Positions 10,624-49,448 are shown, counted from the first letter of the stretch. The stretch: DNA of 64,000 bases from a virus (IMGVR_UViG_3300020190_000054:633-64632), one strand, 5' to 3'. Translations and numbers: made by a program. Notes: generated by a model not told the origin, from the sequence alone.

Positions 10624-10913
10624 AGCTCGTCTTCATCATCGTCATCGTCATAGACCATACAGGCCTGGGCTAGTTCAGCTAGTTCCAGGTCCGTTGGAAT
10701 ATCAAAATCAAGTTCAATGTGTTCTCCGGCCATTATTTCTTTTACCGCTTGCCACTCCATTAACCGCTGGTAGTAAAGGTTCAGGAGTGCGCTATGGAGT
10801 TGATCCCATGTCATTTCTTGCGCAGCAAGCTCAGCCTTACGCATGGAAAATTGAAGCTCTAATGGAAGTTCAAATTCGCGTGGTTCGACTGACCTCTCCA
10901 TTGCGTTCTTCAT
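10611..10913 (-). CDS. nblA: NblA-like phycobilisome degradation adaptor
   Basis: ELPLELQFSMRK...QEMTWDQLHSALLNLYYQRL matches the NblA pattern L.LEQ.F..R....V..M...Q....L..LY.Q. Confidence 0.7.
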   Translation of the reverse strand: MKNAMERSVEPREFELPLELQFSMRKAELAAQEMTWDQLHSALLNLYYQRLMEWQAVKEIMAGEHIELDFDIPTDLELAELAQACMVYDDDDDEDELQPF

Positions 10914-10937: not shown

Positions 10938-11600
10938 CTAGCTTGCAAATATAGCGTCAAGGTCTTCTTCGGTGAATGGGTGCCAGGGGTTTTGCTTAAT
11001 GTTGAATTCATTTGCAAATTCCGCCAGGAGATAGGGGTTGGTTACTTCTTCTAGTTTGCGGATTGCACGGACCTGGTGAGGTGCGGCACTGTAGTTTCGG
11101 AATGCAGTAAGAAGAATTTCAGTAGACGCCCAGGGACTGGCATTTACTTCTCGCAAGAACAAATCAACTTCTTCTCTCCGTCGTTCCAGCAAGCCACCAA
11201 TGACTTTGTGTTCTTGGTCAAAGATCCAATGACTGATCTCATCTGTGGCAGCACCCCAGTCTTCTTGGTCGATGAAGTCGACGATGGCGCTGTAAAGAAA
11301 GGGTTCCCATCCAACAGAATGAACAAAAGAAATCAAAGCCTGTCGCATGGAGTCGTCCATATGGACATTTAACTCTTTCAACTGTTTATCAATTAGTTTG
11401 ATTTCGTGAAACAGATATTCCAGGGCTTTTTCTTTGGTGCAGCAATGGCCTTGGCGCACAGCAGAACCATCGGGATAAAATTGAGTTCCATAACCAAATG
11501 TGTATGGGTCTTTGCCGGTTTGTTGATCCGGGTACGCTTTTTCGTTAAAACCTTCGTATTTACGAATAATTTTTATGGCGTCGCCAAAGTAGCTACCCAT
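10938..11600 (-). CDS. endolysin, GH24 phage lysozyme
   Basis: IRKYEGF..KAYPD...YTFGYGT, QALISFVHSVG, GGLLERRREE. Confidence 0.9.
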   Translation of the reverse strand: MGSYFGDAIKIIRKYEGFNEKAYPDQQTGKDPYTFGYGTQFYPDGSAVRQGHCCTKEKALEYLFHEIKLIDKQLKELNVHMDDSMRQALISFVHSVGWEPFLYSAIVDFIDQEDWGAATDEISHWIFDQEHKVIGGLLERRREEVDLFLREVNASPWASTEILLTAFRNYSAAPHQVRAIRKLEEVTNPYLLAEFANEFNIKQNPWHPFTEEDLDAIFAS

Positions 11601-23640: not shown

Positions 23641-25625
23641 TCAGACGCTACCGTCATCAGACACAAAGCTGTAGGCGGTGGTCACGAAGTCCTTGTTCAG
23701 GATCTCGAAGCCAGCGTACAGTTGCCAGATGAGGATGATGAAACGGCTGAAGTCGTCGTTGTTGTTGATCAGCACCTGAGCGTTCGGACCGCCGATACCA
23801 ACGCCAATGGCTTGAGGACCGAAGAAGAAACCTTGGGCAACTTCTTGGTTGGCATAAGGGGCAGCGCCGGTGAAAGAAGCCGAAACGTTCTTGGTCGGGA
23901 AGTTGGTCGACTCGAAGAACTTAACGCCTTCAAACTGAACACCAGTCGGCATGACGGGTTCACCAGCCAGGAAATAAGCCTGACCAGCTTGGGGACCCAT
24001 GTAGAAGCTGGCGTTGTTAGGCATCATGGGGTTGCCCATGTACATGCCTTGGCCAGGATTGCCAGCGTAACGAGCAATTTCACGGAAGTCGGGATCACGA
24101 CGCAGGTGCATCATGAAGGTGGGATCGCAGATGCAACGATACAGACCATCAGCGAAGGTAGGAACGTTACGCTTGCGCAGATCCTTGACAACAGTCAGAA
24201 GGTCGGTACGCACCGAGAACTGCTGCACATCAGCGGTGTACTCAGCGGAGCTGTAAGTAACTTGGCTGGAAGAGTTCTTGGCTTTGTTACCAGGGAAGTA
24301 GTAACCACCTTGGGTGCTGGAAGCTTGACCATTGGCATCAGCTTTGGCCAGTTCGTCAATGAAGACGCGGTCACGCCAACGGCGATAGTCATCAAGCAGC
24401 GTCAGGCTACCGATCGACTGGTGGAACATATTCAGGTTGCCGGTGTCCAGCAGCAGACGCTGGGCGGTAACCAGGGTTTCACGAGCAATCTTGAAGGTGC
24501 TGGGCTGGGTCGGATCGCCCGGATCAGCAGGGCCGGTGTACTCTTTCAGCACAACAAGCACCTTCTCTTTGGTGATGTTGCGGCTGTTAGCGGTACCGAT
24601 GGTTTGGTCAGCCACGCGCTCACGGCTGTCCTTGGTACCAGGAGTACCCCAGAACTTATAGCGGTCGAGCTGAACGGTTTGACCAGGCTGACGAGTGAAG
24701 TCGTGAACAACCACGGGCTCCACAGCCATCTCGGCAATATATGCAGGGTGCGGACGATAGAGTTCCGCGCCTAAAATCTTTGGAAAATCGTTCTCCTGGT
24801 CCCTAATTTCTTAGAGGGGTGGACTATCTCTTCATCCCTGTGGGATGCCGGACGCTAAATCTGGTATTACGTAACAAGATCGTGTTACCCCCAGTAGTCT
24901 CTGCACCTTCCAATCACGGGCTTGATTGGCTTGGCTCAGGATTACCCTCGTCTTTACGTTAGGGCTTCCCTGAATTCATCCGGTTTGCACTCATCAATTA
25001 CTCGATGAGGTGACAACGTTGAGCGTTCAGTTGAGGTATGATTTGGAAACCTGTTCATAAACAACATGGATCCAAAATTAGTTCCTGGATTTGGTAACCT
25101 TTACTTAACAGAAAGAGGAGAAGCTTTTGAAAAACAACTTGATGAAAACAACCAAGAATATTTTCAAAAAATTGCAATTAGCTCAACCAGTACTTATGAC
25201 CGTATTTCTGTTCTTGTAAATGGAAGAAGAAAGAGGTTTCATCTTCACGTCTTGATGGCTATTGCTTTTTTAGGGTTAGATCTTCGTTCACATGGAACAA
25301 ATAATTTTTCCCTTCAAGTAGATCACAAGGACAACAACAAAAGAAATAACTGCGTCGATAACCTTGAAATCGTAACCAAACAAGAAAATCTTACAAGAGC
25401 TTGGGAAACCGGTTGTTACAAGAACAATGGTTTTGCTAGTAAAGGCAGACCGAAAAAAACTTTAAGAAAATTTTCTTCGGAAGACGTGAAGCAAATTAAA
25501 ACTTTAAAAGAAGCAGGACTTTCTTATCGAAAGATTGCGGAAAAGTTTAACTGCAATCACGGTGCTATTTACCAAATCCTAAAAGGAAATACCTACCAGG
25601 ATCTGAACTAGCTATCAATAAACAC
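23641..25625 (-). CDS. major capsid protein, spliced: join(25614..25625, 23641..24792), 387 aa
   Basis: GGAGG SD at 25636-25640; GTG TTT ATT GAT exon joins in frame to AAC GAT TTT CCA, giving MFID-NDFPKILGAELYRPHP...; body has G.TVQ..RY, L.EY, HP-like DPTF..LRRD, G...GVKFFES and D.F.R....W, typical of N4-gp56-like capsids. Confidence 0.85.
24793..25613 (-). mobile_element. group I self-splicing intron (821 nt) in the major capsid gene
   Basis: Conserved core on minus strand: P AAUUCAGGGAA, Q AAUCCUGAGC, R GUGCAGAGACUA, S AAGAGAUAGUCC; P3 CCGGAUG/CGUCCGG; P7 GACUA/UAGUC; exon ends in U and intron ends in G; P1 UGAU^AGC/GUUGUCA; P10 CGUU/AACG. Confidence 0.93.
25066..25611 (+). CDS. intron-encoded HNH homing endonuclease with C-terminal HTH, antisense to the intron
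   Basis: HVLMAIAFLG...QVDHKDNNKRNNCVDNLEIVT..EN, then GLSYRKIAEKFNCNHGAIYQI; AT-rich relative to flanks; TATGAT at 25037-25042. Confidence 0.92.
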   Translation: MDPKLVPGFGNLYLTERGEAFEKQLDENNQEYFQKIAISSTSTYDRISVLVNGRRKRFHLHVLMAIAFLGLDLRSHGTNNFSLQVDHKDNNKRNNCVDNLEIVTKQENLTRAWETGCYKNNGFASKGRPKKTLRKFSSEDVKQIKTLKEAGLSYRKIAEKFNCNHGAIYQILKGNTYQDLN

Positions 25626-29517: not shown

Positions 29518-31044
29518 CTAGAAATCAAGTTGAAGTTGTCCTTTTCTAGCAAGACCGGTCACCAACCAAACAAGCGCATCTACACAGTCGTCGTGACTGC
29601 TTACGCCAAAGTTTGTAAGCTCTTCAAACATATTGGTGAAGTTGCGGTAACGATTAAAAACAATCTTGCGGTCTTCAAACATACCAATAATCCCACGGAA
29701 TCGAGCTAATTTATCCGCTCGGAATCCCTTAACGGGATGCCAAATTAAATTGTACAAACCCTCATTACTTAAGCAAATACGTTTAAAGTCTGCTTCCAGA
29801 GATGCCTGATACTGTACAGCTTCACTCCAAATATCGCACGTCGAATAAGTCGGAAAATAGTTACCGTTTTCGTCCTTACCTACCACAGACCAATCATTAA
29901 GCAATTCTTTAAGGGCATCCAATTTTTCAAGATTACCCATGACACGAATACGGCGGTAATCAATAATATGAATGCGATCTCCAATACGACCGCCAAGAAC
30001 CATTACGGTGTAATCATTCTTTTCTCTGACTCCAGCAGATAAGTCAACCCCAATACCAAGTGCATCAAATTCTGTAGAAATTTCGGCTTTAACGATTAAT
30101 TCTGGTGCAAGAGACAATTCATTTTGTCGAATAATTTGATTCATGTACTGGAACGAAAAAGCAATAGGTGCTTGTCGTTTCTTTTCTTTTAGATACTCCA
30201 GAGACCACATCTCTGGCCAATACGACAATTCATCTCCTGTTTTGGGATCAGTCAGAATTGCAGAAAGAACAATTTGCGACCAATTGTTTTGATCGTTAAA
30301 TGTTGTGGCATGAATGTCATCATGCCGGAAACGTGTACCAAGACAGACTGCGCGACCACCTTCGAACATCGTTGGTGCAATCACAGCATTCCAGTTATCC
30401 TGCATCATCTTTCTGATGTCAGGATTTGAAATGTCAGCAGCTGATTTGATAGGGTCATCAATGATTACCAAGTGAGAACGCTTGGATGTCACTGAACCTT
30501 TAAGGCCTGCCGCACAAAGAGTAAATTGTTCATCACCTGTTACGTCAATGCCAGCAAATTTATGATCGATTGACCAATATTCATTGCTGGTGACGTTTTT
30601 TAAAAGACGTACAGAGGGAAAAACTTCTTGATACCGTTTGCTTTCAATAATTCGTTTAATAGTTGCTGATTTAGAACGCGCAATATCAACCGTGTAAGAC
30701 AAGTAAAGAATCTGTAACGGAAGCTTAGCTTGAGTGTGAATACCAATAGCCCATGCAGTAAATAAACCAAGGACTGTTGATTTAGCCGAACCCCTGGGGC
30801 CAAGAAGATCTACGTTTGGACCAGCAATTTTAATAAGGCACGAACTATCTTGATCTGTTACAAAGTGATGATGCCATTCTTTGTGATGCCGAGCAGGGGG
30901 TTTGTCTGCGACGTACTCACAAAAATAACCAAAGTCTTCGCGAGCCTTCTTAAGATCAGTTTCGTTTTTAGGAACTTTGATCTGGTGATTACGCGCAGCC
31001 GCTTTTGCGTTGCGCCGATACGCGAGATGAACGTAAGAAGGCAC
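29518..31044 (-). CDS. terL: terminase large subunit
   Basis: Walker A PRGSAKST, Walker B VIIDDP, motif III LGTRF, nuclease GVDLS and HDDCVDA. Confidence 0.95.
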   Translation of the reverse strand: MPSYVHLAYRRNAKAAARNHQIKVPKNETDLKKAREDFGYFCEYVADKPPARHHKEWHHHFVTDQDSSCLIKIAGPNVDLLGPRGSAKSTVLGLFTAWAIGIHTQAKLPLQILYLSYTVDIARSKSATIKRIIESKRYQEVFPSVRLLKNVTSNEYWSIDHKFAGIDVTGDEQFTLCAAGLKGSVTSKRSHLVIIDDPIKSAADISNPDIRKMMQDNWNAVIAPTMFEGGRAVCLGTRFRHDDIHATTFNDQNNWSQIVLSAILTDPKTGDELSYWPEMWSLEYLKEKKRQAPIAFSFQYMNQIIRQNELSLAPELIVKAEISTEFDALGIGVDLSAGVREKNDYTVMVLGGRIGDRIHIIDYRRIRVMGNLEKLDALKELLNDWSVVGKDENGNYFPTYSTCDIWSEAVQYQASLEADFKRICLSNEGLYNLIWHPVKGFRADKLARFRGIIGMFEDRKIVFNRYRNFTNMFEELTNFGVSSHDDCVDALVWLVTGLARKGQLQLDF

Positions 31045-39276: not shown

Positions 39277-41196
39277 TTAAATGTTCCGTCCAAGTTGACG
39301 ACGCAAGAAATCTTGCGGATCACGTCCTTCGATTCTAGCTCTACGCAATACTTCACTTACTGCAATACTTTCTTTAGCAACTTGACGACGATCAAGTTCT
39401 CTTTGAATTGCAGCAGCACCTGACTTGGTAGATTGCCCCAAGGCTCTAGTTAAACCTTCTGTTGTTACACCCGAGTATGGTGTTGCTTCTTGTTTTGCAA
39501 TCCACTTGGGAACGTCGGTTGGTTTACGTGTTGCAGCAGCCGAATATTGTCCCGTTACTTTGCTCATAGCACCAGGTACATAGCCAGCCTCTTGTCCATA
39601 AATACCCATACCAGCAGAACCACCAGGGATTTCAGGCAGTGGTGCTCGATTTAAAATACTGTATTTAATTTCTTGTTTTGATTGTTGCGTTGTCGGCAAG
39701 TCCGGTGGCATTGCACCAGTGACTCTTAAAGCGCCTGGAATATCTTGTCCCGTTTCCATGGGAACACCTGGGACTAAGGGGTCGCCAGTACCAAAGAGTT
39801 GACGTTCTTCAACTTTAGGTAAAACTTCTTGCAAACTAGGCGATGCACCACGAATAGCGGTACCAACAGCCGTCGACTCAATCTGTGCTTCAGGCCCAAT
39901 GTTTACAAGGGTCGTTTCAGAAGGTCGCCCGGTTAAACCAGGGATGCGTTCTGATTCCGGCACTTCTTGAATACTGGCTGCTTCCACTGCTTTACGCACT
40001 GTGGTTGGAAGAGAGATGTTCTGACGAAACTCTTCAGTGCCAGGCTGTAATCCCGCTTTAGATGCCCAACCTTCTGCCAATGCACGTTCAAAGCGAGTAG
40101 TACCAGGGCGCAAACCGCGCTCAACTAACTCTTGACGCCGTTGCATCATTTCAGTTTTGGCAATATCCGCTAATTCTTGCGATGACAGTGAACGTGCTTG
40201 CTCAATTTGATCAACCGGAAGACCATCTGGAAGTTGAGACGCAACTTGATTAATAGGACCATCGTCCACATAACCAATCATCTGTGATGGCTCTGCTTCT
40301 GCCATCATGCGTTGCCGTTCTGCTTCAACAAAATCTTCTAAGAAACTAATCTCACCAAGATCATTGTCTTCATTTTGTTGAAGACTGTGCATAACCCGAC
40401 CAGTTTGTTGATCTTCTGCAGATTCAACAGCATTAAATTTTTGATCAGCAATTAATGGTTGTTGAATTTTTTGTGAATCAGTCAATGTTTCTGCTGGTGC
40501 TAATGACCCAGTAGATTCAAGATATGCACGAGGATTAAACCCTTCAGCGCCAGAAGAACGAATTTCAGTTAAAACATCATCAACTTGACGTTCAATACCT
40601 TGAACTTGTGCAGCTTGCCGCCGCATTTCTTGTTGAGTAGCGCGACCGGTTTCCAAACGCTTTGCTTGTTCATACTCTGGTGCGTACTTTTGAATAATGT
40701 CGTACGCAACATCGGAACCCAAAAGGTTTTGCGGTACAACTGAAACGTTGACTGGAGTTACGGCTTGAGTTTTAGGGGTATAAGGTAAATCCCAAGGACT
40801 TGGTGCAGCTTGTTGAGAAACAGATGGTTGAACAACAGGTTCTTTAGAGGGAGGAGGAGTTGTTTCTTGTACAACACGACGAACTGGTGACACTTCAGCC
40901 CCCATTTCCGCCAAGTCAACCTGACGAACACCAGCAGTTGCGGACTTTGCGGGACCACGGAGTAAACGACGACCGGCAATGGTGGCTCCTACGCCTCCAG
41001 CAAGAGCTAAACCTACGCCAATGCCGACTGATAGTGGATCAAACCCCTTTGATTCTTGCGATTCAGGTGCTTTGAGCTGATTACGACGGAATTCCAGTAC
41101 TTCTGGCGCCATCTGAGCCCTTTCTTCTGGCGATTCGGGGACAGGAACCCCGGTTGCGCGACTATATGCGTAAAAATCAGCCGGAGAAATGGCCAT
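39277..41196 (-). CDS. large low-complexity protein with an N-terminal membrane segment
   Basis: 639 aa; VGIGVGLALAGGVGATIAG segment; E/Q/P-rich. Confidence 0.65.
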   Translation of the reverse strand: MAISPADFYAYSRATGVPVPESPEERAQMAPEVLEFRRNQLKAPESQESKGFDPLSVGIGVGLALAGGVGATIAGRRLLRGPAKSATAGVRQVDLAEMGAEVSPVRRVVQETTPPPSKEPVVQPSVSQQAAPSPWDLPYTPKTQAVTPVNVSVVPQNLLGSDVAYDIIQKYAPEYEQAKRLETGRATQQEMRRQAAQVQGIERQVDDVLTEIRSSGAEGFNPRAYLESTGSLAPAETLTDSQKIQQPLIADQKFNAVESAEDQQTGRVMHSLQQNEDNDLGEISFLEDFVEAERQRMMAEAEPSQMIGYVDDGPINQVASQLPDGLPVDQIEQARSLSSQELADIAKTEMMQRRQELVERGLRPGTTRFERALAEGWASKAGLQPGTEEFRQNISLPTTVRKAVEAASIQEVPESERIPGLTGRPSETTLVNIGPEAQIESTAVGTAIRGASPSLQEVLPKVEERQLFGTGDPLVPGVPMETGQDIPGALRVTGAMPPDLPTTQQSKQEIKYSILNRAPLPEIPGGSAGMGIYGQEAGYVPGAMSKVTGQYSAAATRKPTDVPKWIAKQEATPYSGVTTEGLTRALGQSTKSGAAAIQRELDRRQVAKESIAVSEVLRRARIEGRDPQDFLRRQLGRNI

Positions 41197-41299
41197 TTGC
41201 AGTTATTACGGGTACTTTTGACCTGTTGTCATTCTATTGTTGACAAATCTTAAGTGTGCCGCCGTTATAGTAAGAGAAATGTGGTTGTAAGTTCCAGGG

Positions 41300-41512
41300 A
41301 TGGACGCTGGTACTAGGCAAAAACGGGTTGAAGCCCTTGAAAAAATCAAAGACCGTGCCGTAAACATGGCAAAAGAAGGAAGAGATTCCTTTGAGGTACG
41401 AGATTTTGTTACTAAAGCCAAAAAAGAATTGGCATATGAGCTTCCAGATGAGGAAGCTTTTACAAAAGCTATGAATGCAACGTTGGCTTATAAACGCAAA
41501 AGCAACAAATAA
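41300..41512 (+). CDS. small helical hypothetical protein
   Basis: 70 aa followed by a terminator. Confidence 0.6.
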   Translation: MDAGTRQKRVEALEKIKDRAVNMAKEGRDSFEVRDFVTKAKKELAYELPDEEAFTKAMNATLAYKRKSNK

Positions 41513-41537
41513 GTAAAAAACAACATAAATTTTAATC

Positions 41538-41563
41538 GCGGAGTTTAACCACTCCGCTTTTTT
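41538..41563 (+). terminator. intrinsic terminator
   Basis: GCGGAG-N8-CTCCGC followed by TTTTTT. Confidence 0.75.
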
Positions 41564-41740
41564 GGCTGGTTTTTTGGGCTAATTAGGGAAAATAATTACA
41601 AAAATTGTTTTTATTTTAAAGACTGGCCCGTATATCTACCAGGTTGGGGTGATAGTTACTTTACTCTTCTCCACCCGCCCGTCCGAATGTGAATGTGGAG
41701 AGAAAAAAAAGAAAGGGCGGGGGTATGTGAAATGTAGGAG

Positions 41741-41863
41741 CCTGACTACGTTTAGTGAAGGTTACCTGACTACGTTGTGAGGATTCTGAAGGAAGCCTGA
41801 CTACGTTGGATGGTTACTGTAGGTTACCTGACTACGTTTAGAGGAAGGATACCTGACTACGTT
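41741..41863. repeat. five direct repeats of CCTGACTACGTT (iteron-like)
   Basis: Copies start at 41741, 41765, 41796, 41827 and 41852. Confidence 0.92.
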
Positions 41864-42058
41864 TAGAGGAATGAGAGATTCTATCGCGAAGGACGAAGGA
41901 AGTCAGGCGAGTTTACATTAATCTTTCCAATTCACAAGGTTAAGTATTAACTACGTTTCACACCGAGCGGGCTACGACCCGCTCTTATCTGTCTACGTTA
42001 TGCGTCACTGCGCATATACACATAGCGATTGGTTACATATCTGATCAATTGCTTCGTT

Positions 42059-42076
42059 TGATACGAATTCGTATCA
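42059..42076. repeat. perfect 18-bp palindrome TGATACGAATTCGTATCA
   Basis: Read directly from the sequence. Confidence 0.85.
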
Positions 42077-42354
42077 CCATTTCGCTCTAATACGGTACAA
42101 AATCAATGCTTAGCGCTCCGCTCCGCTGGAAGTGCGTTATAGAACGGTGTAGAAATTGGGGGTTGACACGCCCTAATTTTCGTCTGTTCATTGATATTAC
42201 TTGGCTTTCACTTCGCCAGAGGTGATGTAAGCCCAATGTGCACTAGGGCTTAGGCCCTCTCGCAGGGTTAGAAGCCCTGAACTTCCACAGGTTTAGGCCT
42301 GCCAACTAACTTCTGCCCTTTGCGGAGATAGGCACCGCACTATTGGAGTAGACC

Positions 42355-42522
42355 ATGTCGGTTTACGTTGTTATCCTCTGTGATCTGTACCAGGATCACT
42401 TCAATATACGGAACATCTTGGGTTTATTTGCTAGCCGTGAAGCGGCTGACAAGTATGTTCAATCCCAAGAACTTGAGGAAGGTGAACGGTTTCTTGTTTA
42501 TAAGGAATACGTTCGAAACTGA
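42355..42522 (+). CDS. 55-aa first gene of the early arm (not in the ORF track)
   Basis: GGAG SD; MSVYVVILCDLYQDHFNIRNILGLFASREAADKYVQSQELEEGERFLVYKEYVRN. Confidence 0.6.
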   Translation: MSVYVVILCDLYQDHFNIRNILGLFASREAADKYVQSQELEEGERFLVYKEYVRN

Positions 42523-42543
42523 TCCGTCAAAGCGGGAGGACAG

Positions 42544-42885
42544 GTGCAAACCCTGTCCCAGTTATTGCGTAGGTACACACGTACTACTGCGCATCCTGCC
42601 CGTAAGGGCAGGCACTCAACTCACTGCATTATCCTTATGTTTATCTATCAACCCAACCAGTATTCCGACGATCGTGTCGTATGGTATGGCGGTGAATCGA
42701 CTCAGCTCCATTACGAGAAGGAATGTGTTGATGACAACGGCTGTCCTGAATGGAGAGGTGTTGCAGTACGTCCTTTTGGTAATGGGCTTCCCAGTGGCAT
42801 GTCAGAAATGCATGCTGAGCTAGTTGATTACTACTGCTATTGCAACACGATGAAGTATGAAAAGAAGTTAGCTATGGCTGACTGA
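42544..42885 (+). CDS. hypothetical early protein
   Basis: GGAGG SD before GTG. Confidence 0.55.
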   Translation: MQTLSQLLRRYTRTTAHPARKGRHSTHCIILMFIYQPNQYSDDRVVWYGGESTQLHYEKECVDDNGCPEWRGVAVRPFGNGLPSGMSEMHAELVDYYCYCNTMKYEKKLAMAD

Positions 42886-42983
42886 TACTTGATTCCTGCA
42901 CCTACCCATTACTTTTAACAAGAGGTGATGGGTTTCTGCAGGCTTCACACCTGCACAACTCAACTCAACCCAACAGAAGTCCC

Positions 42984-43226
42984 ATGACTCCTAAAGCTGT
43001 TGAACGTCTTCTCACTCAAGAAGCTCGTCTTCTTGCACGTCGAGATACTCCTTTCATTGACCAAGAAATTGAGAGTCAGCGTCAAGCTGCTCTTGATGTC
43101 TTTTATCAGTGGCAAGATGGCTTGGTACAGTTCCAGGACATTGTTCCTTTTTGCGTGGTGCTCGAACGTAAAGTTCGTCTGAACCATGATCTTATTAGAT
43201 GGGAACTTAACCATCTGATGGATTGA
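42984..43226 (+). CDS. hypothetical early protein
   Basis: 80 aa, flanked by structured intergenic elements. Confidence 0.6.
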   Translation: MTPKAVERLLTQEARLLARRDTPFIDQEIESQRQAALDVFYQWQDGLVQFQDIVPFCVVLERKVRLNHDLIRWELNHLMD

Positions 43227-43318
43227 TTTCTGCATTTAACCCTTCCCATCCATTGTGATGGGTGGGTTTACTGCAGAGTTCAACTCTGCTTGTTTACTTA
43301 CTTAATTCAACTCAACTT

Positions 43319-43717
43319 ATGGCTTACGCTGACCTCCAAACAATTTCACTTGTTGGTCGCATCGCTGATCTCACCGTCATTAAGACGGAAGATGAGCGTA
43401 ACTGCCTCATTGTCACCCTGTATCACCGCATCTCACCAGATGCACTAATCACTGTTAAGTTCCTTAACTCCAACGGATTGCTCACTGCTTACACCAATGA
43501 CAACTTGGTTGTAGGACAAGAACTTACCGTCGTTGGTAAAATTCAAGCCATTCGTTCTTTCTACATGAAAGACGATGAACTTACTCCGCTCAAGCAACCA
43601 GAGTTCCAACTGAAAGTCATCGACTATGCTTTTGGTTCCAAGCCTCAACCAAAGGCCGAACCCAAAGCTACCAAGAAGACCAAAGCTCAGCCTACGCTTG
43701 AGCCAGTGGAACTCTAA
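43319..43717 (+). CDS. single-OB-fold SSB-like protein
   Basis: ISLVGRIAD...LVVGQELTVVGKI; basic/proline-rich tail. Confidence 0.55.
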   Translation: MAYADLQTISLVGRIADLTVIKTEDERNCLIVTLYHRISPDALITVKFLNSNGLLTAYTNDNLVVGQELTVVGKIQAIRSFYMKDDELTPLKQPEFQLKVIDYAFGSKPQPKAEPKATKKTKAQPTLEPVEL

Positions 43718-43798
43718 TTGACGGTTACACTAAGGGACTTCGGTCCCTTTCTGTAGCCCTCGATGGCTACACCACTTATTACACATTCACTTCACAAC

Positions 43799-43990
43799 AT
43801 GAAACAAGTTATTAAACTACGTCCCAACAGTTATGTCCACCTTGATTCCTATGGCGAAGCTAAGGATTCATTTATTGCCAACATGCTGATTACTCTTGTT
43901 GTTGTCGGTATTGCTGCAATGACAGGAGCCGCTGCTGTTGGCGTGGACATTACTAACATTCAACCTATTACTATTCAACAATCCAAATGA
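43799..43990 (+). CDS. small membrane protein
   Basis: Hydrophobic LITLVVVGIAAMTGAAAVG. Confidence 0.5.
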   Translation: MKQVIKLRPNSYVHLDSYGEAKDSFIANMLITLVVVGIAAMTGAAAVGVDITNIQPITIQQSK

Positions 43991-44337
43991 CTACTGCCCT
44001 TGCATCTCGTTTAGAAACTCTTGCTAATCGCATCAATCAACTCTTTGTTGCATTGTGTGAGAACTATGCCAAGAGCAATGCCGGTAGTAAGTATTACCAT
44101 CCGGATCAACTTAGTTTTGAAATCGTTTCAGGAACTAAGTACCACAAAATTGTCATGCACCACCAGGGCAGTCGATCTGTCCATGCGTTTGTCCACAAAC
44201 AATCTGGTGCTGTCTACAAACCTGCTAGCTGGAAATCACCAGCTAAACACGTGCGTTACAACTTGCTTGATGACGCATCGTTCGAGGATTGCCTCAAGCG
44301 TGCTGACTGGGCAGGTGGGTATTTATACCTACCGTAA
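43987..44337 (+). CDS. conserved phage hypothetical protein
   Basis: KYHKIV...SVHAFV...G.VYKPASWKSPAKHVRYNL...WAGGYLY. Confidence 0.75.
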   Translation: MTTALASRLETLANRINQLFVALCENYAKSNAGSKYYHPDQLSFEIVSGTKYHKIVMHHQGSRSVHAFVHKQSGAVYKPASWKSPAKHVRYNLLDDASFEDCLKRADWAGGYLYLP

Positions 44338-44396
44338 GCCCCAGCTTTGCACACTAGCAAATCCTCGCTATCCTATCAACGTTCCCAACTCATACC

Positions 44397-44831
44397 ATGG
44401 AACTTCTATCCCAGCTTGACGTTCAGAACCCTGATCACGTCAGCGTTATTACCCGGTCTGGTCGTGTCATTATCTCCGTTCGTAAGAATGGATCTGATGT
44501 GACTGTCGGTTTTCCCGTCAACACATCAATCTTTGACACTACCCCCAGACCCCCGCTGGCACAATCAGCGCCAGCACCTAAACCTATTAGAGACGAACTA
44601 CGTCAGAAACGTATTGAATCAGCTGCCGCTCGTATGAGTAAAGCTGCTCGTTTTAATACCAAACTCACATTGCAATCAGCACGTCAAATTAAAGACATGC
44701 TGGTAGACAAAGAGATTATGGCTAAGTTCAGGTCTAGGCACCAAGCTCATTTGCAAATTGCACAAGCCTATGGTGTGAGCGTTCATGCCATTAGGGCAAT
44801 TGACAAAGGTACGGCTTGGAAATCTGCCTGA
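44397..44831 (+). CDS. C-terminal HTH protein
   Basis: NTKLT...I...QIAQAYGVS..AIRAI.KG.AW. Confidence 0.65.
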   Translation: MELLSQLDVQNPDHVSVITRSGRVIISVRKNGSDVTVGFPVNTSIFDTTPRPPLAQSAPAPKPIRDELRQKRIESAAARMSKAARFNTKLTLQSARQIKDMLVDKEIMAKFRSRHQAHLQIAQAYGVSVHAIRAIDKGTAWKSA

Positions 44832-44839
44832 CTTATGCC

Positions 44840-44935
44840 ACGTCTTGGGCAGGCGAAGCGTAATGTTTAATCAATGGACTCACTTGGATTTATCCCAGTG
44901 GGTCCTACACACCTTCGGTGACGTTAAACTGCCTA
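44840..44935 (+). ncRNA. expanded copy of the dispersed pseudoknot element, with a 67-nt structured insert
   Basis: ACGTC/GACGT and TGGGCAG/CTGCCTA joined by a TAAA linker. Confidence 0.55.
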
Positions 44936-44963
44936 TTCTTTTTGGCTACACAGCATTCAACTC

Positions 44964-45116
44964 ATGGATCTTAATCAATTCGAAAATGACATTCCATCTG
45001 ATGCACTTGATGCATTAGCTGATCTTGCTTATGAGCAACGTCAAGCAATGATGGAAGAACTCATTACTCAACCATCTACAACTCATGAAACCATCCTCTA
45101 CTCCCCAACAACATGA
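44964..45116 (+). CDS. 50-aa acidic peptide (not in the ORF track)
   Basis: MDLNQFENDIPSDALDALADLAYEQRQAMMEELITQPSTTHETILYSPTT, preceded by a CAACTC leader. Confidence 0.5.
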   Translation: MDLNQFENDIPSDALDALADLAYEQRQAMMEELITQPSTTHETILYSPTT

Positions 45117-45185
45117 CATAGTTTTGGTATTGATATTCATTATCATTACCAGCGTTCAGCTCTTCATTCAATTCATTGCAGAACT

Positions 45186-45542
45186 ATGGCATTTCATCCA
45201 GTTACCCAAGAAATCGCAGAAGCTTTCGGCTATGAACCCATGTCCGAAGCTGAGCGTAATCAACAATTCCAGCTCACTCCAAACTACGACTCCATTCAAG
45301 ACGGAGTCCCAAAAGCTGGAAGTATCTATCTCAACAAATGCGGAGTCTATCGCTATTACTGGATCCCAGAAGGTGACAACTACACCGACGAAGAGAAAGG
45401 TGACCTCCAAGGCTGGTACGATATCCCGCTCAACGAAGACATCGAAGACTGGTGTTTCGATTCCTGCGCTTTCACGCCAGCGGAAGATGAAGTCGAACCT
45501 GACCACCCAGACAGCTGGCTTAGGCTTCTCGGTTTGATTTAA
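45186..45542 (+). CDS. acidic hypothetical protein
   Basis: 118 aa; C.TP..DEVEPDHPDSWL.LLGLI C-terminus. Confidence 0.65.
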   Translation: MAFHPVTQEIAEAFGYEPMSEAERNQQFQLTPNYDSIQDGVPKAGSIYLNKCGVYRYYWIPEGDNYTDEEKGDLQGWYDIPLNEDIEDWCFDSCAFTPAEDEVEPDHPDSWLRLLGLI

Positions 45543-45636
45543 GTATTGTTTGCCTACAAGAAACTGTCAATACTGCCCACAGCCTGGATCATTAAAGATC
45601 CGGTTGACTCTTCCAAATTCCAACGCACTTCCGACA

Positions 45637-45915
45637 ATGCAAAAGTATTTAAATGAGTATTTCGCAGTTTGCGAAGTCTTAGCTGATCTCAAAGCTATTA
45701 TCCAACGTGAAAATGAACGCCATGAAATGGATCAACACCTTGTTCCATCCATGCGTGATCTAATTGAAAACGAAATTATTCCTTTGCTTGAAAATGAGAT
45801 TGATGCAGATCCAACTCCTCAATATCTCTACGACGACACCGGTGGTGAACCTCCGATGACTGCAGCGGAAATACATCACGTTGCCTGGGTGCAACACCAG
45901 GCTTTGCACTCGTGA
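45637..45915 (+). CDS. hypothetical protein
   Basis: DPTP...GGEPPMTAAE.H..AW C-terminus. Confidence 0.6.
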   Translation: MQKYLNEYFAVCEVLADLKAIIQRENERHEMDQHLVPSMRDLIENEIIPLLENEIDADPTPQYLYDDTGGEPPMTAAEIHHVAWVQHQALHS

Positions 45916-46092
45916 TTTTATCTACCGCAAAGTTAAGAAACCATTAAGAAGTAAGGGCTGGTTCGCATTAGAACCTAAGTCTGGTGCGGCCAGACGCCCT
46001 TTGCTTCATCATTATTCCGGTTGGGCCTGAACCAAGCGGAATCCCCTTAAACAATCCACTGGCCAGTGGGTCCCTGCAGGAGACTCACTCAT

Positions 46093-46108
46093 TGTAACCA
46101 CAGTTACA
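46093..46108. promoter_or_regulatory. putative NtcA-binding site TGTAAC-N4-GTTACA
   Basis: Intergenic GTA-N8-TAC with extended palindrome. Confidence 0.45.
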
Positions 46109-46167
46109 GGTCCATGGCCAGGGGTTGACACATCTGGTAAACTTACAATTCATCACACCATCAACTT

Positions 46168-46386
46168 ATGTCACAGCTCAACGACGCACCCAAGCCCCGC
46201 ATCCCTGATGCAATGGATTTCCAACGGCTGCAAGCAATGCAGATCGTTGCCAAGATGAAGGAATCAGCTGACAAATACGGTGTTGGATTCGTTGGTGGAT
46301 TTGTATCTGCCAACGGTGAAAAATTCATGATGTCCAACATGTCAGATGAAGACACTTTAATGCTCTTGCCTGAAGATCTCCAATGA
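46168..46386 (+). CDS. hypothetical protein
   Basis: 72 aa ORF. Confidence 0.6.
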   Translation: MSQLNDAPKPRIPDAMDFQRLQAMQIVAKMKESADKYGVGFVGGFVSANGEKFMMSNMSDEDTLMLLPEDLQ

Positions 46387-46628
46387 AAGAAGTTATTTAC
46401 TACAAAATCATTTCAATTGATGGACGTGATCACACAATTAGTTGTTGTGATTATTCAGAGTCCATTAATGAATTAATTAAAGACAACATTCTTGAAGACA
46501 ATGATTCAGAAATTGTTGATCACATTTTTCAAGAGGAATGTACGTGACTAACAATCAGTCCGAACTAATTGATGCACTTATTGGAGATTTTAACTTTGAA
46601 CGTGTGTTAACTGAATCATGTACTTGGG

Positions 46629-46838
46629 ATGACTGACAAATCACCAATTAATTTTGATAGGACAATCCACGGCTTCAATATTACGGAACATGGCATTAAG
46701 TCTTATACAAAATCATTCAAGCTTGGACCGTTTCAGTTAACACTGAACGCCCGTAAGTCTGGTGTCCTTGGGTCGGTATCGATCCCTGGTACTGGCTTGT
46801 CCAAGCGAAACATCAACCTATTCAATTTCAACTCATGA
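46629..46838 (+). CDS. DUF4236-like small protein
   Basis: KSFKLGPFQLTLN...SVSIPGTGLS. Confidence 0.6.
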   Translation: MTDKSPINFDRTIHGFNITEHGIKSYTKSFKLGPFQLTLNARKSGVLGSVSIPGTGLSKRNINLFNFNS

Positions 46839-47050
46839 ATCCAACTGAACTCACACAACTTATTTGCATGATGGAAACACGGGGCGGTTCTTTTGTAGCC
46901 GCCATCGGTGCAGCCTTGCGTTATGCAGATCCTGTCAATCGGCAACGATTGCTTGATGCATTTCCAGATCTTGTAGAAAAGTATGGCCCCAACGGCATGT
47001 TTGCTGTTGCTCGTGCCATGGCAGAAGACCTTATCTCAAACAAATCATGA
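46835..47050 (+). CDS. hypothetical protein
   Basis: GGSFV.AIG.A...AD..N...L..AFP motif. Confidence 0.65.
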   Translation: MNPTELTQLICMMETRGGSFVAAIGAALRYADPVNRQRLLDAFPDLVEKYGPNGMFAVARAMAEDLISNKS

Positions 47051-47304
47051 CCGTCCTTGCAATCGAAGACACTTCTATTGATGGATCCCATGTCACAGTT
47101 ACAGCTGTTGTGGATGAGATGCGTCTCATCTACCGTGCAACTCAGTTTGAACCTGAGGAATATGCTCCTGCATTATGCAGCGCAAGCTTTGAGCTGGATC
47201 CAGAGGAACAAATTCCTGTTGATGAAGATGGCTTCTGTAGTTATCTTGATCAACGAGATTTGCTCTGGCAACTGGTCGACACTTCCGACTGGGATCTAGA
47301 TTGA
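47047..47304 (+). CDS. acidic hypothetical protein
   Basis: 85 aa; ATGA overlap. Confidence 0.6.
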   Translation: MTVLAIEDTSIDGSHVTVTAVVDEMRLIYRATQFEPEEYAPALCSASFELDPEEQIPVDEDGFCSYLDQRDLLWQLVDTSDWDLD

Positions 47305-47309
47305 TTCAC

Positions 47310-47336
47310 TGTCCTGAGCATGACATTAAACTGCTC
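47310..47336 (+). ncRNA. H-type pseudoknot element
   Basis: TGTC-CT-GAGCA-T-GACA-TTAAAC-TGCTC. Confidence 0.7.
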
Positions 47337-47365
47337 AACACTACGAACTCAACTCTGAACTCACC

Positions 47366-49114
47366 ATGCAATTCCGACTCCCAGAACAACTGCAAACTGA
47401 GTTGCTTGCGTATGATCCCAAGCTTAAAGCTCTAGCTCGCAGTCAAAATCCTAAGAAACAAACCAAGAAAGCAACGCATCCACTTGGTAATCCAAATGAT
47501 TTGATTCCAGATGATGTTGTTCGTGCATCGCTGCTTCAAGATGCAATCGATAATATCAACGGTAATCCTGCCGCAGGTAGGTTTCAAATCTTTACCAAAG
47601 TGGTAGATGTTGCTACACCCGAAGCACGTACCGTTACTGTTGCCATTCTTTACTACTATGAGCAATGCTGGTATGCAGCATGGCTTCCGCCCAAGGGTAA
47701 AGAAAATGAGTATCTCTACGGTTATGCATATGCATATAAAGATACTGCAACAGCATTGAAAATGGTATCACGCTCACTAAATGAAGAAAGACATGAAAAC
47801 CTAACAGTTGAAAAGCAATATGGACGCAGCAAATTTTTTGTGCGTCAAGCTGTTATTACAATTGAAGATGTGCGTAAATCTAAATATGATCAATCGGTAA
47901 GACGTTGGAATATTCCAGGTGTTACTTCGTATTATCGAAAATCGCAAGATATGTACAGAGCAATTACTGGATTCGAAGACGCATTGCGTAACAAAATTCC
48001 TACCTGGTCTGATTCCAGGGGGATCTTTGATCGTGTTCGTTGCACTGGAATCGGTAACCTTCTGATTGAAGAAGCAACACCCAATGTAGTTGCTGATCTT
48101 GAATCGTGGTTGCCTTCATATGAATCGTTGATGCAGATCATTGATTCAGATCCAGGGGAGTATCCATATCGTTTGGTAGAGTATCGTTCGTTTGCATCTA
48201 TTAAGCACATTATTAATACACCGTATTTCCGTAGGTGGATTCAACAACAATGTGATTTATCCATTGCTACATTCAATAATCCAGCCACAGAATATGCGGC
48301 AGATGTCAAGCGTCCGTGGTTGACAATCAAAGCATATCTCGGTGCTATCAATAGTATCTACGCAATCTGGCCTAATTGTCCCATTGATTACTATCAAAAT
48401 AATATTGACGTATTGCTCGGTGTTACTTTCCGTTTGAATCAAAACGAAAAGACATTTGAATGGCTACGTCAACATATGCCAATTGCATCATTTATCGGCA
48501 TCTTGTCTAAGTTTTACCAAGAACAATTGCAAGAGGCTAAAAAAGATAATCGTTTGCACCACCGCCGTAGCTTGTATTATAGCGAACGTTTGGGAAGAAA
48601 CGTATTTAGCTTCTCTGATCTCAGTGATGCACTATCAATGCTGACTCAGGTTCTATCCCATGGAGATCTTGAACCACCTAAGCGTTGGCGCATCGCTGAG
48701 TTCCATGATTATGTACAAGGTGAAGCCTGGAAGATCAAGAATCCAAATGAAGGTCTGCCCCAAGACTTGTTCCCGCAACCAGTCAAGGTGCAACTTGATG
48801 GTGAAACTTGGTTATTCTTCCAGCCATATGACACACACCAGCTGTCAAGCTGGGGTCAAGCTGTTCGTAATTGCATTGGTTCTGCTACGCATTATGCGGA
48901 AGACTGCAAGAAGAAGAAACACTTTATTGTTCTGTGCATGATTGACGGTAAGCCTCAGTTCACCATTCAACTCACCGTTGATATGGGTATGATGTCCGTC
49001 AAGCAAATTGCTGGCATTGCCAACAAGAGTCTCACGCAAGAACAGAAAGATCAATACACTCAAGCATTTGGCTTGGCCTTGCAATCTCGTAACGCTCAGC
49101 TAGTATCTGCGTAG
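47366..49114 (+). CDS. PcfJ-like domain protein
   Basis: 582 aa; C-terminal FHDYV...QLSSWGQAVRNCIGS..Y...C...FTIQL...VKQI.G..N. Confidence 0.7.
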   Translation: MQFRLPEQLQTELLAYDPKLKALARSQNPKKQTKKATHPLGNPNDLIPDDVVRASLLQDAIDNINGNPAAGRFQIFTKVVDVATPEARTVTVAILYYYEQCWYAAWLPPKGKENEYLYGYAYAYKDTATALKMVSRSLNEERHENLTVEKQYGRSKFFVRQAVITIEDVRKSKYDQSVRRWNIPGVTSYYRKSQDMYRAITGFEDALRNKIPTWSDSRGIFDRVRCTGIGNLLIEEATPNVVADLESWLPSYESLMQIIDSDPGEYPYRLVEYRSFASIKHIINTPYFRRWIQQQCDLSIATFNNPATEYAADVKRPWLTIKAYLGAINSIYAIWPNCPIDYYQNNIDVLLGVTFRLNQNEKTFEWLRQHMPIASFIGILSKFYQEQLQEAKKDNRLHHRRSLYYSERLGRNVFSFSDLSDALSMLTQVLSHGDLEPPKRWRIAEFHDYVQGEAWKIKNPNEGLPQDLFPQPVKVQLDGETWLFFQPYDTHQLSSWGQAVRNCIGSATHYAEDCKKKKHFIVLCMIDGKPQFTIQLTVDMGMMSVKQIAGIANKSLTQEQKDQYTQAFGLALQSRNAQLVSA

Positions 49115-49166: not shown

Positions 49167-49382
49167 ATGGAATACACTGACGATCAACTCCTTGCCATGG
49201 CACTTGGCAATATCGGTGATTTCATCCATGACAATTCACCACACTATGTGTTGATCGAAGAAGATTTTCGCAACGATGAGGACTACGACACTTGGGATTA
49301 TGGCACTGAGCCATTGCCCCAAGATCACACTTGGCGTCATACATCTATTGATGTTTGTGTAAGTCCAAGTGCGCCTGAGTAG
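49167..49382 (+). CDS. small acidic hypothetical protein overlapping the tRNA 5' end
   Basis: 71 aa ORF. Confidence 0.5.
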   Translation: MEYTDDQLLAMALGNIGDFIHDNSPHYVLIEEDFRNDEDYDTWDYGTEPLPQDHTWRHTSIDVCVSPSAPE

Positions 49383-49448
49383 CCCAGCGGAAGAGGCAAA
49401 CGACTTAAAATCGTTCCAGCGTGGGTTCGAATCCCACCTCAGGTACCA
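49373..49448 (+). tRNA. trnL: tRNA-Leu(UAA), intron-less, short variable loop, encoded CCA
   Basis: Acceptor GCCTGAG/CTCAGGT-A-CCA; anticodon arm AACGA-CT-TAA-AA-TCGTT; T arm GTGGG-TTCGAAT-CCCAC. Confidence 0.92.

Follow-up and report, generated by a model that had tools for sequence, protein, structure and literature searches.

Intercistronic elements with two alternative pairings of a common strand, and their possible role in message processing, in a probable freshwater cyanophage

The window analyzed here is a stretch of 64,000 nucleotides that covers nearly all of a 64,632-base virus record, for which CheckV estimated a completeness of 82. Its genes form a block on the minus strand (220-41196), which includes the terminase gene (29518-31044), and a block on the plus strand that begins at 42355 and carries many small open reading frames (ORFs) followed by genes for ThyX, a family A DNA polymerase, and SSB. 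The polymerase shares 75.7% identity with its counterpart in Synechococcus phage S-EIVl (= S-EIV1), which infects Synechococcus and came from a high-arctic lake, whereas the next relatives are <45% identical; the virus sequence is also present in 24 lake-water DNA runs. Based on the polymerase identity and the occurrence in lake water, the virus appears to be a freshwater cyanophage of the S-EIV1 lineage. Comparison of positions 41000-46000 with a phage collection by Megablast returned zero matches. Among the 30 distinct ORFs scanned against Pfam, we found no RNA polymerase or RNase of the phage's own, and the ORFs scanned included no candidate RNA-binding protein. The minus-strand structural block also holds a group I intron (24800-25043, minus strand, 94.2 bits), adjoined by a plus-strand ORF with HNH endonuclease and HTH domains (25066-25611), and a tRNA-Leu gene with anticodon TAA (49373-49448) lies among the plus-strand genes.

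The two gene blocks are divided by a non-coding stretch of 1.1 kb (41197-42354). At 41300-41557, this divergent region contains a small plus-strand ORF of 70 aa and, downstream of it, a clear terminator-like hairpin ending in a T-run (41538-41557 plus TTTTTTGG). At 41741-41866, CCTGACTACGTT(TAG) is repeated five times in direct orientation at intervals of 24-31 nt; the copies look like iterons or an operator array and may mark an origin or early control region. A near-perfect palindrome, TTGATACGAATTCGTATCA, is located at 42058-42078. The motif of the five direct copies, CTGACTACG, also has two occurrences in the corresponding non-coding region of S-EIVl. The first gap of the plus-strand operon (42523-42636) holds a second type of intergenic element, in which TGATCCGTCAAAGCGGG is followed by three hairpins (-43.8 kcal/mol), and S-EIVl has two copies of its opening sequence with the first hairpins (L008 gaps 10790-10901 and 11137-11214). 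Farther downstream, a structured non-coding stretch at 45950-46010 (GGGCTGGTTCGCATTAGAACCTAAGTCTGGTGCGGCCAGACGCCC) is conserved with near identity in a gap of S-EIVl (L008 14206-14674). Rfam gave no match to this stretch at an E value of ≤1, and it may represent a small RNA.

The second to fourth gaps of the plus-strand operon, which from its position and gene content is probably the early operon, are occupied by the three elements that concern us here, E1, E2, and E3. An earlier note on this DNA had described them as consecutive arrangements of a strand A, a hairpin, a complementary strand A', and a second copy of A, each starting within about 10 nt of a stop codon. All of these strands were found at the positions given there, and the upstream stops (42883-42885, 43224-43226, and 43715-43717) end 9, 2, and 5 nt before the respective 6- or 7-mers. 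From 5' to 3', the elements share strand A1, one side of an internal loop, an upper hairpin, the other side of the loop, A', a spacer, and A2, a copy of the 5' strand. A feature not described there is that the helix continues past the base of A1, where a conserved UGA box is paired with a UCA (UCG in E3) of the spacer.

E1 follows a TGA stop at 42883-42885. Its box, UUGA, is out of frame (42889-42892); in the predicted fold its UGA (42890-42892) pairs with UCA at 42945-42947, lengthening the long helix, and the pairing is also indicated by covariation between box and loop. Strand A1 (CCTGCA, 42895-42900) forms the 5' strand of the lower stem, and a 3x3 internal loop (42901-42903 and 42934-42936) connects it to an upper hairpin of 13 bp with a 4-nt loop (42904-42933). 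Strand A' (TGCAGG, 42937-42942), the potential partner of either A1 or A2, is followed by a 7-nt spacer, A2 (CCTGCA, 42950-42955), and a G-poor leader (42956-42983) that ends at the ATG (42984) of an 80-aa ORF. The TGA stop of that ORF (43224-43226) is itself the UGA box of E2 and is predicted to pair with UCA at 43280-43282. The remainder of E2 consists of A1 (TTCTGCA, 43228-43234, with the 6-mer TCTGCA at 43229-43234 and one G.U pair with A'), a 3x3 internal loop (43235-43237 and 43269-43271), an upper hairpin of 5+6 bp with bulges (43238-43268), A' (TGCAGAG, 43272-43278), A2 (ACTCTGC, 43283-43289, with CTCTGC at 43284-43289), and a leader (43290-43318) preceding the ATG (43319) of a 132-aa ORF. 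In E3, the upstream stop is TAA (43715-43717), and the box, AUUGA (43717-43721, UGA at 43719-43721), is predicted to pair with UCGAU at 43760-43764. Its A1 (GGTTACA, 43723-43729) has one G.U pair with A' (TGTAGCC, 43752-43758); between them lie a 2x2 internal loop and a 7-bp upper hairpin, AAGGGAC-TTCG-GTCCCTT, with a UUCG loop (43732-43749). After a 6-nt spacer, A2 (GGCTACA, 43765-43771) matches A' with perfect Watson-Crick pairing, and the leader (43772-43798) ends at the ATG (43799) of a 63-aa ORF. Within the window, the box is a real stop codon only in E2, the boxes of E1 and E3 being out of frame. The stops of E1 and E3 lie 8 and 5 nt before the 7-nt A1, yet A2 is present in both.

Folding supports two states for each element. 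Fold energies for E1, E2, and E3 are -30.1, -31.9, and -26.6 kcal/mol (z-scores, -5.05, -4.03, and -5.19), and for each of them 0 of 200 shuffled sequences folded as well. The predicted helices comprise 3+6+13 bp in E1, 3+7+5+6 bp in E2 (25 bp when more flanking sequence is included), and 5+7+7 bp in E3. In free RNA, A' is predicted to pair with A1 with a probability of 0.997-0.999 (0.9994 in E1). When A1 and the sequence upstream of it are blocked, the optimum consists of the upper hairpin and A':A2, at a cost of only 4-6 kcal/mol relative to the free state. An RNA that begins at the 3' side of the internal loop is predicted to carry A':A2 as a 5'-terminal hairpin with 3 unpaired 5' nt. The predicted energies are -10.4, -9.6, and -10.3 kcal/mol for A':A2 in this 3' product and -15.7, -15.5, and -9.4 kcal/mol for the upper hairpin kept in the 5' product (E1, E2, and E3, respectively). 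Both conformations proposed earlier are thus recovered by folding, A1:A' in free RNA and A':A2 when A1 is blocked or removed. A scan for exact 6-mer A-A'-A arrangements was too noisy to be informative, and a window-wide list of stable 70-nt folds was likewise uninformative.

To our knowledge, the early-gene expression of cyanophages outside the T4 and T7 groups is almost unstudied. We searched for further copies in several ways. Seven IMG/VR loci were retrieved via the 132-aa protein encoded between E2 and E3, and these loci and S-EIVl have the same element at homologous gaps. A motif scan of IMG/VR yielded 99 stretches, 40 of which we judged by eye to be true elements. A covariance model (R1) was built from 19 copies and ends at A', hence without A2; in the 64.6-kb genome, it identified exactly three sites at an E value of ≤1, namely, E1, E2, and E3. 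Applied to the 40 stretches, seven of the eight loci obtained by homology (L006 being a duplicate of L005), and the window (48 sources in total, 467 kb), the model gave 113 hits at an E value of ≤0.001. After the removal of opposite-strand echoes, 106 were left, 104 of them unique and 103 with at least 30 nt of downstream sequence. Across this family, the lower helix is constant at ∼11 bp and the upper stem is variable; conserved features include the internal loop, with UUC on its 3' side in 71 of 103 elements, and a UGCA(G)/CUGCA core, and the spacers are C/U/A-rich. E1 to E3 are diverged members of one phage-specific family, which occurs in S-EIV1-like freshwater cyanophages. The earlier claim that the architecture is kept while the sequence changes holds for the architecture, which is shared, but the three sequences are related by descent rather than unrelated. 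Related phages have up to four copies in consecutive gaps. S-EIVl (KJ410740) has only one canonical copy (L008 11914-11985) in the 24.3-kb stretch that we searched and folded gap by gap, so the module seems dispensable at most gaps.

A strict element pattern had 0 matches in 185,579 prokaryotic genomes, so that search gave no evidence for a host-encoded counterpart. At gathering thresholds, Rfam reported the group I intron and the tRNA only in the whole window, and in E-value mode the region 41200-44000 gave far subthreshold hairpin look-alikes (the best at 29.5 bits, versus a gathering threshold of 102). A known ribozyme, including a self-cleaving one, or a known riboswitch is unsupported because Rfam returned nothing relevant. 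We also rejected a read-through extension of the upstream protein, since the upper hairpins range from 16 to 42 nt in lengths that are not multiples of three and do not keep the frame.

Conservation of the third strand had been proposed as a test of the arrangement, and it is clear across the family. An A':A2 stem of at least 6 bp is present in 91 of 103 elements (at least 5 bp in 94 of 103), including 3 of 3 in the window, versus ∼3.6 of 103 expected when the downstream sequence is shuffled; ∼42 of 103 have such a stem when A' is compared with the downstream region of an element with a different A'. The IMG/VR motif included part of A2, so we repeated the count without the 38 elements possibly selected by it, and 53 of the remaining 65 have at least 6 bp. 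Among elements from the protein-retrieved loci plus the window, the figure is 19 of 22.

Covariation across related phages, also called for earlier, is seen in both helices. A':A2 was assessed in a MAFFT alignment of all 96 unique 3' parts, which was not fitted to structure and included the misses. RNAalifold predicts A':A2 from this alignment; the stem is 87.2% paired (28-51% in slid controls), and its covariation score is 0.292, compared with 0.130 for shuffled alignments (0 of 500 shuffles as high). For A1:A', in an alignment fitted to the model and including 7 opposite-strand echoes, 95.7% of pairs are formed (41-52% in slid controls) and 4 of 7 pairs have changed on both sides. The 94 elements with A2 contain 52 distinct A1/A'/A2 triplets and show three-way compensation: the triples at A' position 6 are C-G-C in 22, T-A-T in 12, G-C-G in 2, A-T-A in 2, and T-G-C in 9, and those at position 3 are G-C-G in 49 and A-T-A in 2. 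E3 is among the A-T-A cases; its UGCAG has become UGUAG, and both partners follow. These counts overstate the number of independent events because the copies are kin by descent and by exchange between copies.

At A' positions 5-6, G.U pairs occupy 26 of 104 cells in A1:A' but 3 of 104 in A':A2, so A1 and A2 evolve separately, and the G.U pairs place the pairing on the plus strand, i.e., in RNA. The pairing frequencies and three-way changes bear out the proposal that A' can pair with the upstream or the downstream copy but not with both, and the alignments indicate two mutually exclusive pairings that are both under selection. A target-site duplication or MITE, with A1 and A2 as direct repeats flanking an insertion, was rejected because A' stands at only one end of the would-be insert and because A1 and A2 evolve separately.

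The elements occupy a fixed place between genes. Exactly 1 nt separates the stop codon of the upstream ORF from the 7-nt A1 in 79 of 103 elements, and in the 101 with a recognizable upstream ORF that stop is TGA in 88, TAA in 12, and TAG in 1 (compared with TGA in 31, TAA in 26, and TAG in 8 of 65 long ORFs genome-wide). The stop box pairs with the spacer, which is the loop of the A':A2 hairpin, and the two covary: TGA is matched with TCA in 61 elements, TTA in 14, and other sequences in 17, and TAA is matched with TTA in 5, TCA in 0, and another sequence in 1 (Fisher p = 4.8e-4 for the TCA/TTA counts). On the downstream side, a start codon opening a long frame is found 17-30 nt past A2 in 89 of 94 elements. 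The start codon is outside both helices in either state, so no direct on/off control of initiation is apparent. The leaders after A2 contain 6% G and 26% T, often with CAACTCAA, and have no Shine-Dalgarno sequence before the start codons. Repeats resembling CAACTCAA occur in the leaders of E1 to E3 and of relatives (TCAAC in 56 of 90 leaders) and may act as a translation enhancer in a host that initiates without Shine-Dalgarno pairing.

Of 10 elements with a stop 8-30 nt upstream, 7 retain A2, and 2 more have it across a 14-nt loop. Nine elements have no A2 stem of at least 5 bp; two of these are the long-loop cases, and in six of the other seven, which are diverged copies of a single orthologous position, an ORF of 78-106 codons ends at the box and no gene follows for 200-340 nt. 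Since A2 is kept where stops are distant and lost where an adjacent downstream gene is missing, it seems to belong to the downstream gene and to track it. The CTGACTACG motif occurs just upstream of some elements without A2 (L030, L046, and L047), and the palindrome seen at 42058-42078, GATACGAATTCGTATC, which is also the tip of the extended upper stems in many related-phage elements, follows two of them (L052 and L030).

Sigma-70-like promoters at 41100-47400 number 6, compared with 10.0 expected, and none is in an element core; one weak promoter-like site (43791-43818) overlaps the leader and start of E3. The upper hairpins are followed only by UUU(U)CU, and none was flagged as a terminator; the sole element hairpin so flagged was the small A':A2 hairpin of E2. 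Antitermination, suggested earlier, is unsupported because A':A2 is followed by a G-poor leader and a start codon, not by a U-run, leaving no terminator to override.

Based on these features, we propose that the elements form an intercistronic mRNA processing and stability module with the shape of a T7 RNase III site, a reading to which we assign a probability of roughly 0.4. Its most likely role would be to keep the message of each gene protected by a hairpin as the long early transcript is cut or degraded. In intact RNA, A1:A', the UGA box paired with UCA, and the upper stem would together form a helix of about two turns with a small symmetric internal loop, a shape that bacterial RNase III would be expected to cut once, as it does between T7 early genes. 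The same helix, with the upstream stop codon in it, could serve as a strong barrier at the 3' end. A1 would be parted from A' either by endonucleolytic cleavage at the internal loop, on its 3' side, or by 5'-to-3' decay of the upstream cistron, and the freed A' would refold with A2 into a 6-7-bp hairpin. This hairpin would form the 5' terminus of the downstream cistron and would lie 17-30 nt ahead of the start codon, followed by the G-poor leader lacking a Shine-Dalgarno sequence. The upper stem would stay as the 3' hairpin of the upstream mRNA and A':A2 would be the 5' hairpin of the downstream mRNA; thus, each cistron would keep a terminal hairpin.

5'-terminal stem-loops protect bacterial mRNAs, as described for Escherichia coli. 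Terminal hairpins would matter in a host with RNase III, RNase E, and the essential 5'-3' exonuclease RNase J. RNase III and RNase E are found in all sequenced cyanobacteria, and cyanobacterial RNase J is essential and degrades RNA without a 5' triphosphate (PMC10989914). RNase III requires about two helical turns, for which coaxially stacked short helices are allowed; internal loops or bulges limit it to one phosphodiester cut, and the 3' hairpin that remains after a single cut shields the RNA from 3'-5' exonucleases (PMC1540722). By this description, E1 to E3 are long enough, at about two helical turns, and an internal loop interrupts them; this agrees with the RNase III-like character that the earlier note had suggested (PMC1540722). 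Folding and comparison show the structures, that they are conserved and covary, and that they have a fixed place between stop and start; the cleavage or decay, the enzyme responsible, and the protective effect are inferred. A pure processing model has no need of the 1-nt stop spacing or the TGA enrichment, and these two features point to some involvement of the terminating ribosome.

That involvement could amount to a toggle operated by the ribosome, the main rival to the processing module, if a somewhat less likely one. A ribosome terminating on the UGA box would cover A1 and melt the lower helix, whereupon A' would flip onto A2; after release, A1 would take A' back. The exchange could keep the freed, G-rich A' off the unstructured leader without a Shine-Dalgarno sequence, as an insulator, or it could link termination to translation of the next gene, for instance by passing the ribosome across the base of the hairpin as in caulimovirus shunting. 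This reading best explains the 1-nt spacing and the TGA bias (88 of 101, versus 31 of 65 genome-wide), and it is in keeping with the pairing of the stop codon itself with the spacer, with the small cost of the state in which A1 is blocked, and with covariation in both helices. Against it, the canonical spacing occurs within the window only in E2, and E1 and E3 keep A2 anyway, as do most family members whose stops are at least 8 nt away. Moreover, the copies that end a real ORF with no adjacent downstream gene are the ones without A2, so A2 is not needed for termination itself. The earlier idea of a switch coupled to the stop codon therefore stands as regards position, but its purely ribosome-driven version is weakened. 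The processing module and the ribosome-operated toggle are not mutually exclusive.

It is less probable still that the element is chiefly a boundary at the DNA level, combining an attenuator hairpin with expression signals, at which recombination between copies reassorts small early genes, as it does in T4-type phages, and that the RNA pairings are secondary. Several observations fit such a boundary. The same upstream gene is followed by four different downstream genes across phages, with divergence beginning right after A2. Within a genome, the upper hairpins of the copies match completely or almost completely (L004, L007, L002, and L035), but those at orthologous positions differ between genomes, a pattern that indicates exchange between copies. 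The unit also spans stop codon to start codon, as do the promoter early stem-loops (PeSLs) as drawn in the original description (PMC2839356). At the DNA level, the elements do act as junctions of gene cassette exchange and mark the exchange points of early-gene cassettes among lake cyanophages. The absence of sigma-70-like promoters from the element cores and of terminator calls for the upper hairpins argues against this as the chief function, and recombination alone does not account for the three-way covariation or the strand-specific G.U pairs, both of which call for selection on pairing in RNA.

More doubtful again is a strong form of the ribosome-driven exchange, in which the terminating ribosome would work a strand-exchange switch on the stop codon: UGA:UCA and A1:A' would melt at termination, A' would move to A2, and after release the re-zipping of A1 with A' would bring the ribosome or its small subunit past the base of the hairpin and onto the G-poor leader. 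If true, this would amount to a prokaryotic equivalent of the ribosome shunting of caulimoviruses and to a termination-dependent reinitiation over a gap of ∼95 nt. Finally, a hairpin or palindrome UGCAG...CUGCA recognized by a phage or host factor and masked by A1 is very unlikely: the conserved UGCA(G)/CUGCA core, the frequent UUC, and the C/U/A-rich spacers would suit it, but the top of the stem covaries freely (GGA/TCC, GAG/CTC, GGG/CCC, and GTC/GAC) and the core of E3 is UGUAG/CUACA, which is unlike a sequence-specific operator, the G.U pairs oppose a DNA palindrome, and the scanned ORFs offer no candidate RNA-binding protein. On the same stem-top covariation and G.U pairs, we rejected a DNA palindrome or operator as such.

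The family offers a compact, testable module of ∼95 nt with >100 natural variants and two helices mapped by covariation. If the processing module hands A' over as proposed, one strand would protect two neighboring cistrons in turn, and the element could serve as a natural intercistronic insulator for the engineering of cyanobacterial operons. We know of almost no work on how translation and mRNA decay are organized in hosts largely without Shine-Dalgarno sequences. The literature searched contained no description of a strand that is anchored at a stop codon and common to one cistron's 3' hairpin and the following cistron's 5' hairpin.

Four known systems bear comparison. Like the PeSLs of T4-type phages, the elements are repeats that fill the stop-to-start gaps of small early genes, and the gene content of relatives changes exactly at the units; unlike PeSLs, they lack the defining sigma-70 promoter (Arbiol et al. 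2010, PMC2839356). They differ further in that their hairpin is no clear terminator and in the RNA-level covariation of two alternative helices. In trp-type leader-peptide attenuators, successive strands form mutually exclusive pairings and the position of the ribosome decides between them. The elements resemble these in having mutually exclusive helices with one common strand, A', and a ribosome at the stop codon could decide which one forms. In contrast to such attenuators, A':A2 has no U-run and precedes a gene start, hence is not a terminator, and the ORF involved is a full upstream gene rather than a leader peptide.

Intercistronic processing is well known from chloroplasts. In operons, intergenic stem-loops set the stability of segments after endonucleolytic cleavage, and the elements share with these the intergenic position and the proposed effect on segment stability (PMC10667835). 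They depart from such stem-loops in that one strand is common to the 3' protector and to the 5' protector of the next cistron. The RNase III sites R0.3, R0.5, R1, R1.1, and R1.3 separate the early genes of phage T7. Like these, the elements occur one per gap in a polycistronic and probably early message and consist of a hairpin of about two turns split by an internal loop, and the single cut expected would leave a protective 3' hairpin on the upstream mRNA (PMC1540722). Unlike the T7 sites, they have a third strand, A2, that would let the 3' lower strand refold as a 5' hairpin, and they have a stop codon in the base of the helix. The host is probably cyanobacterial, the downstream leaders have no Shine-Dalgarno sequence, and cleavage, familiar at the T7 sites, is here a proposal; the internal loop, at 2-3 nt, is also symmetric, unlike that of the T7 sites. 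By analogy, then, the closest functional counterparts of the element are probably the T7 early RNase III sites and the intercistronic stem-loops that stabilize operon segments.
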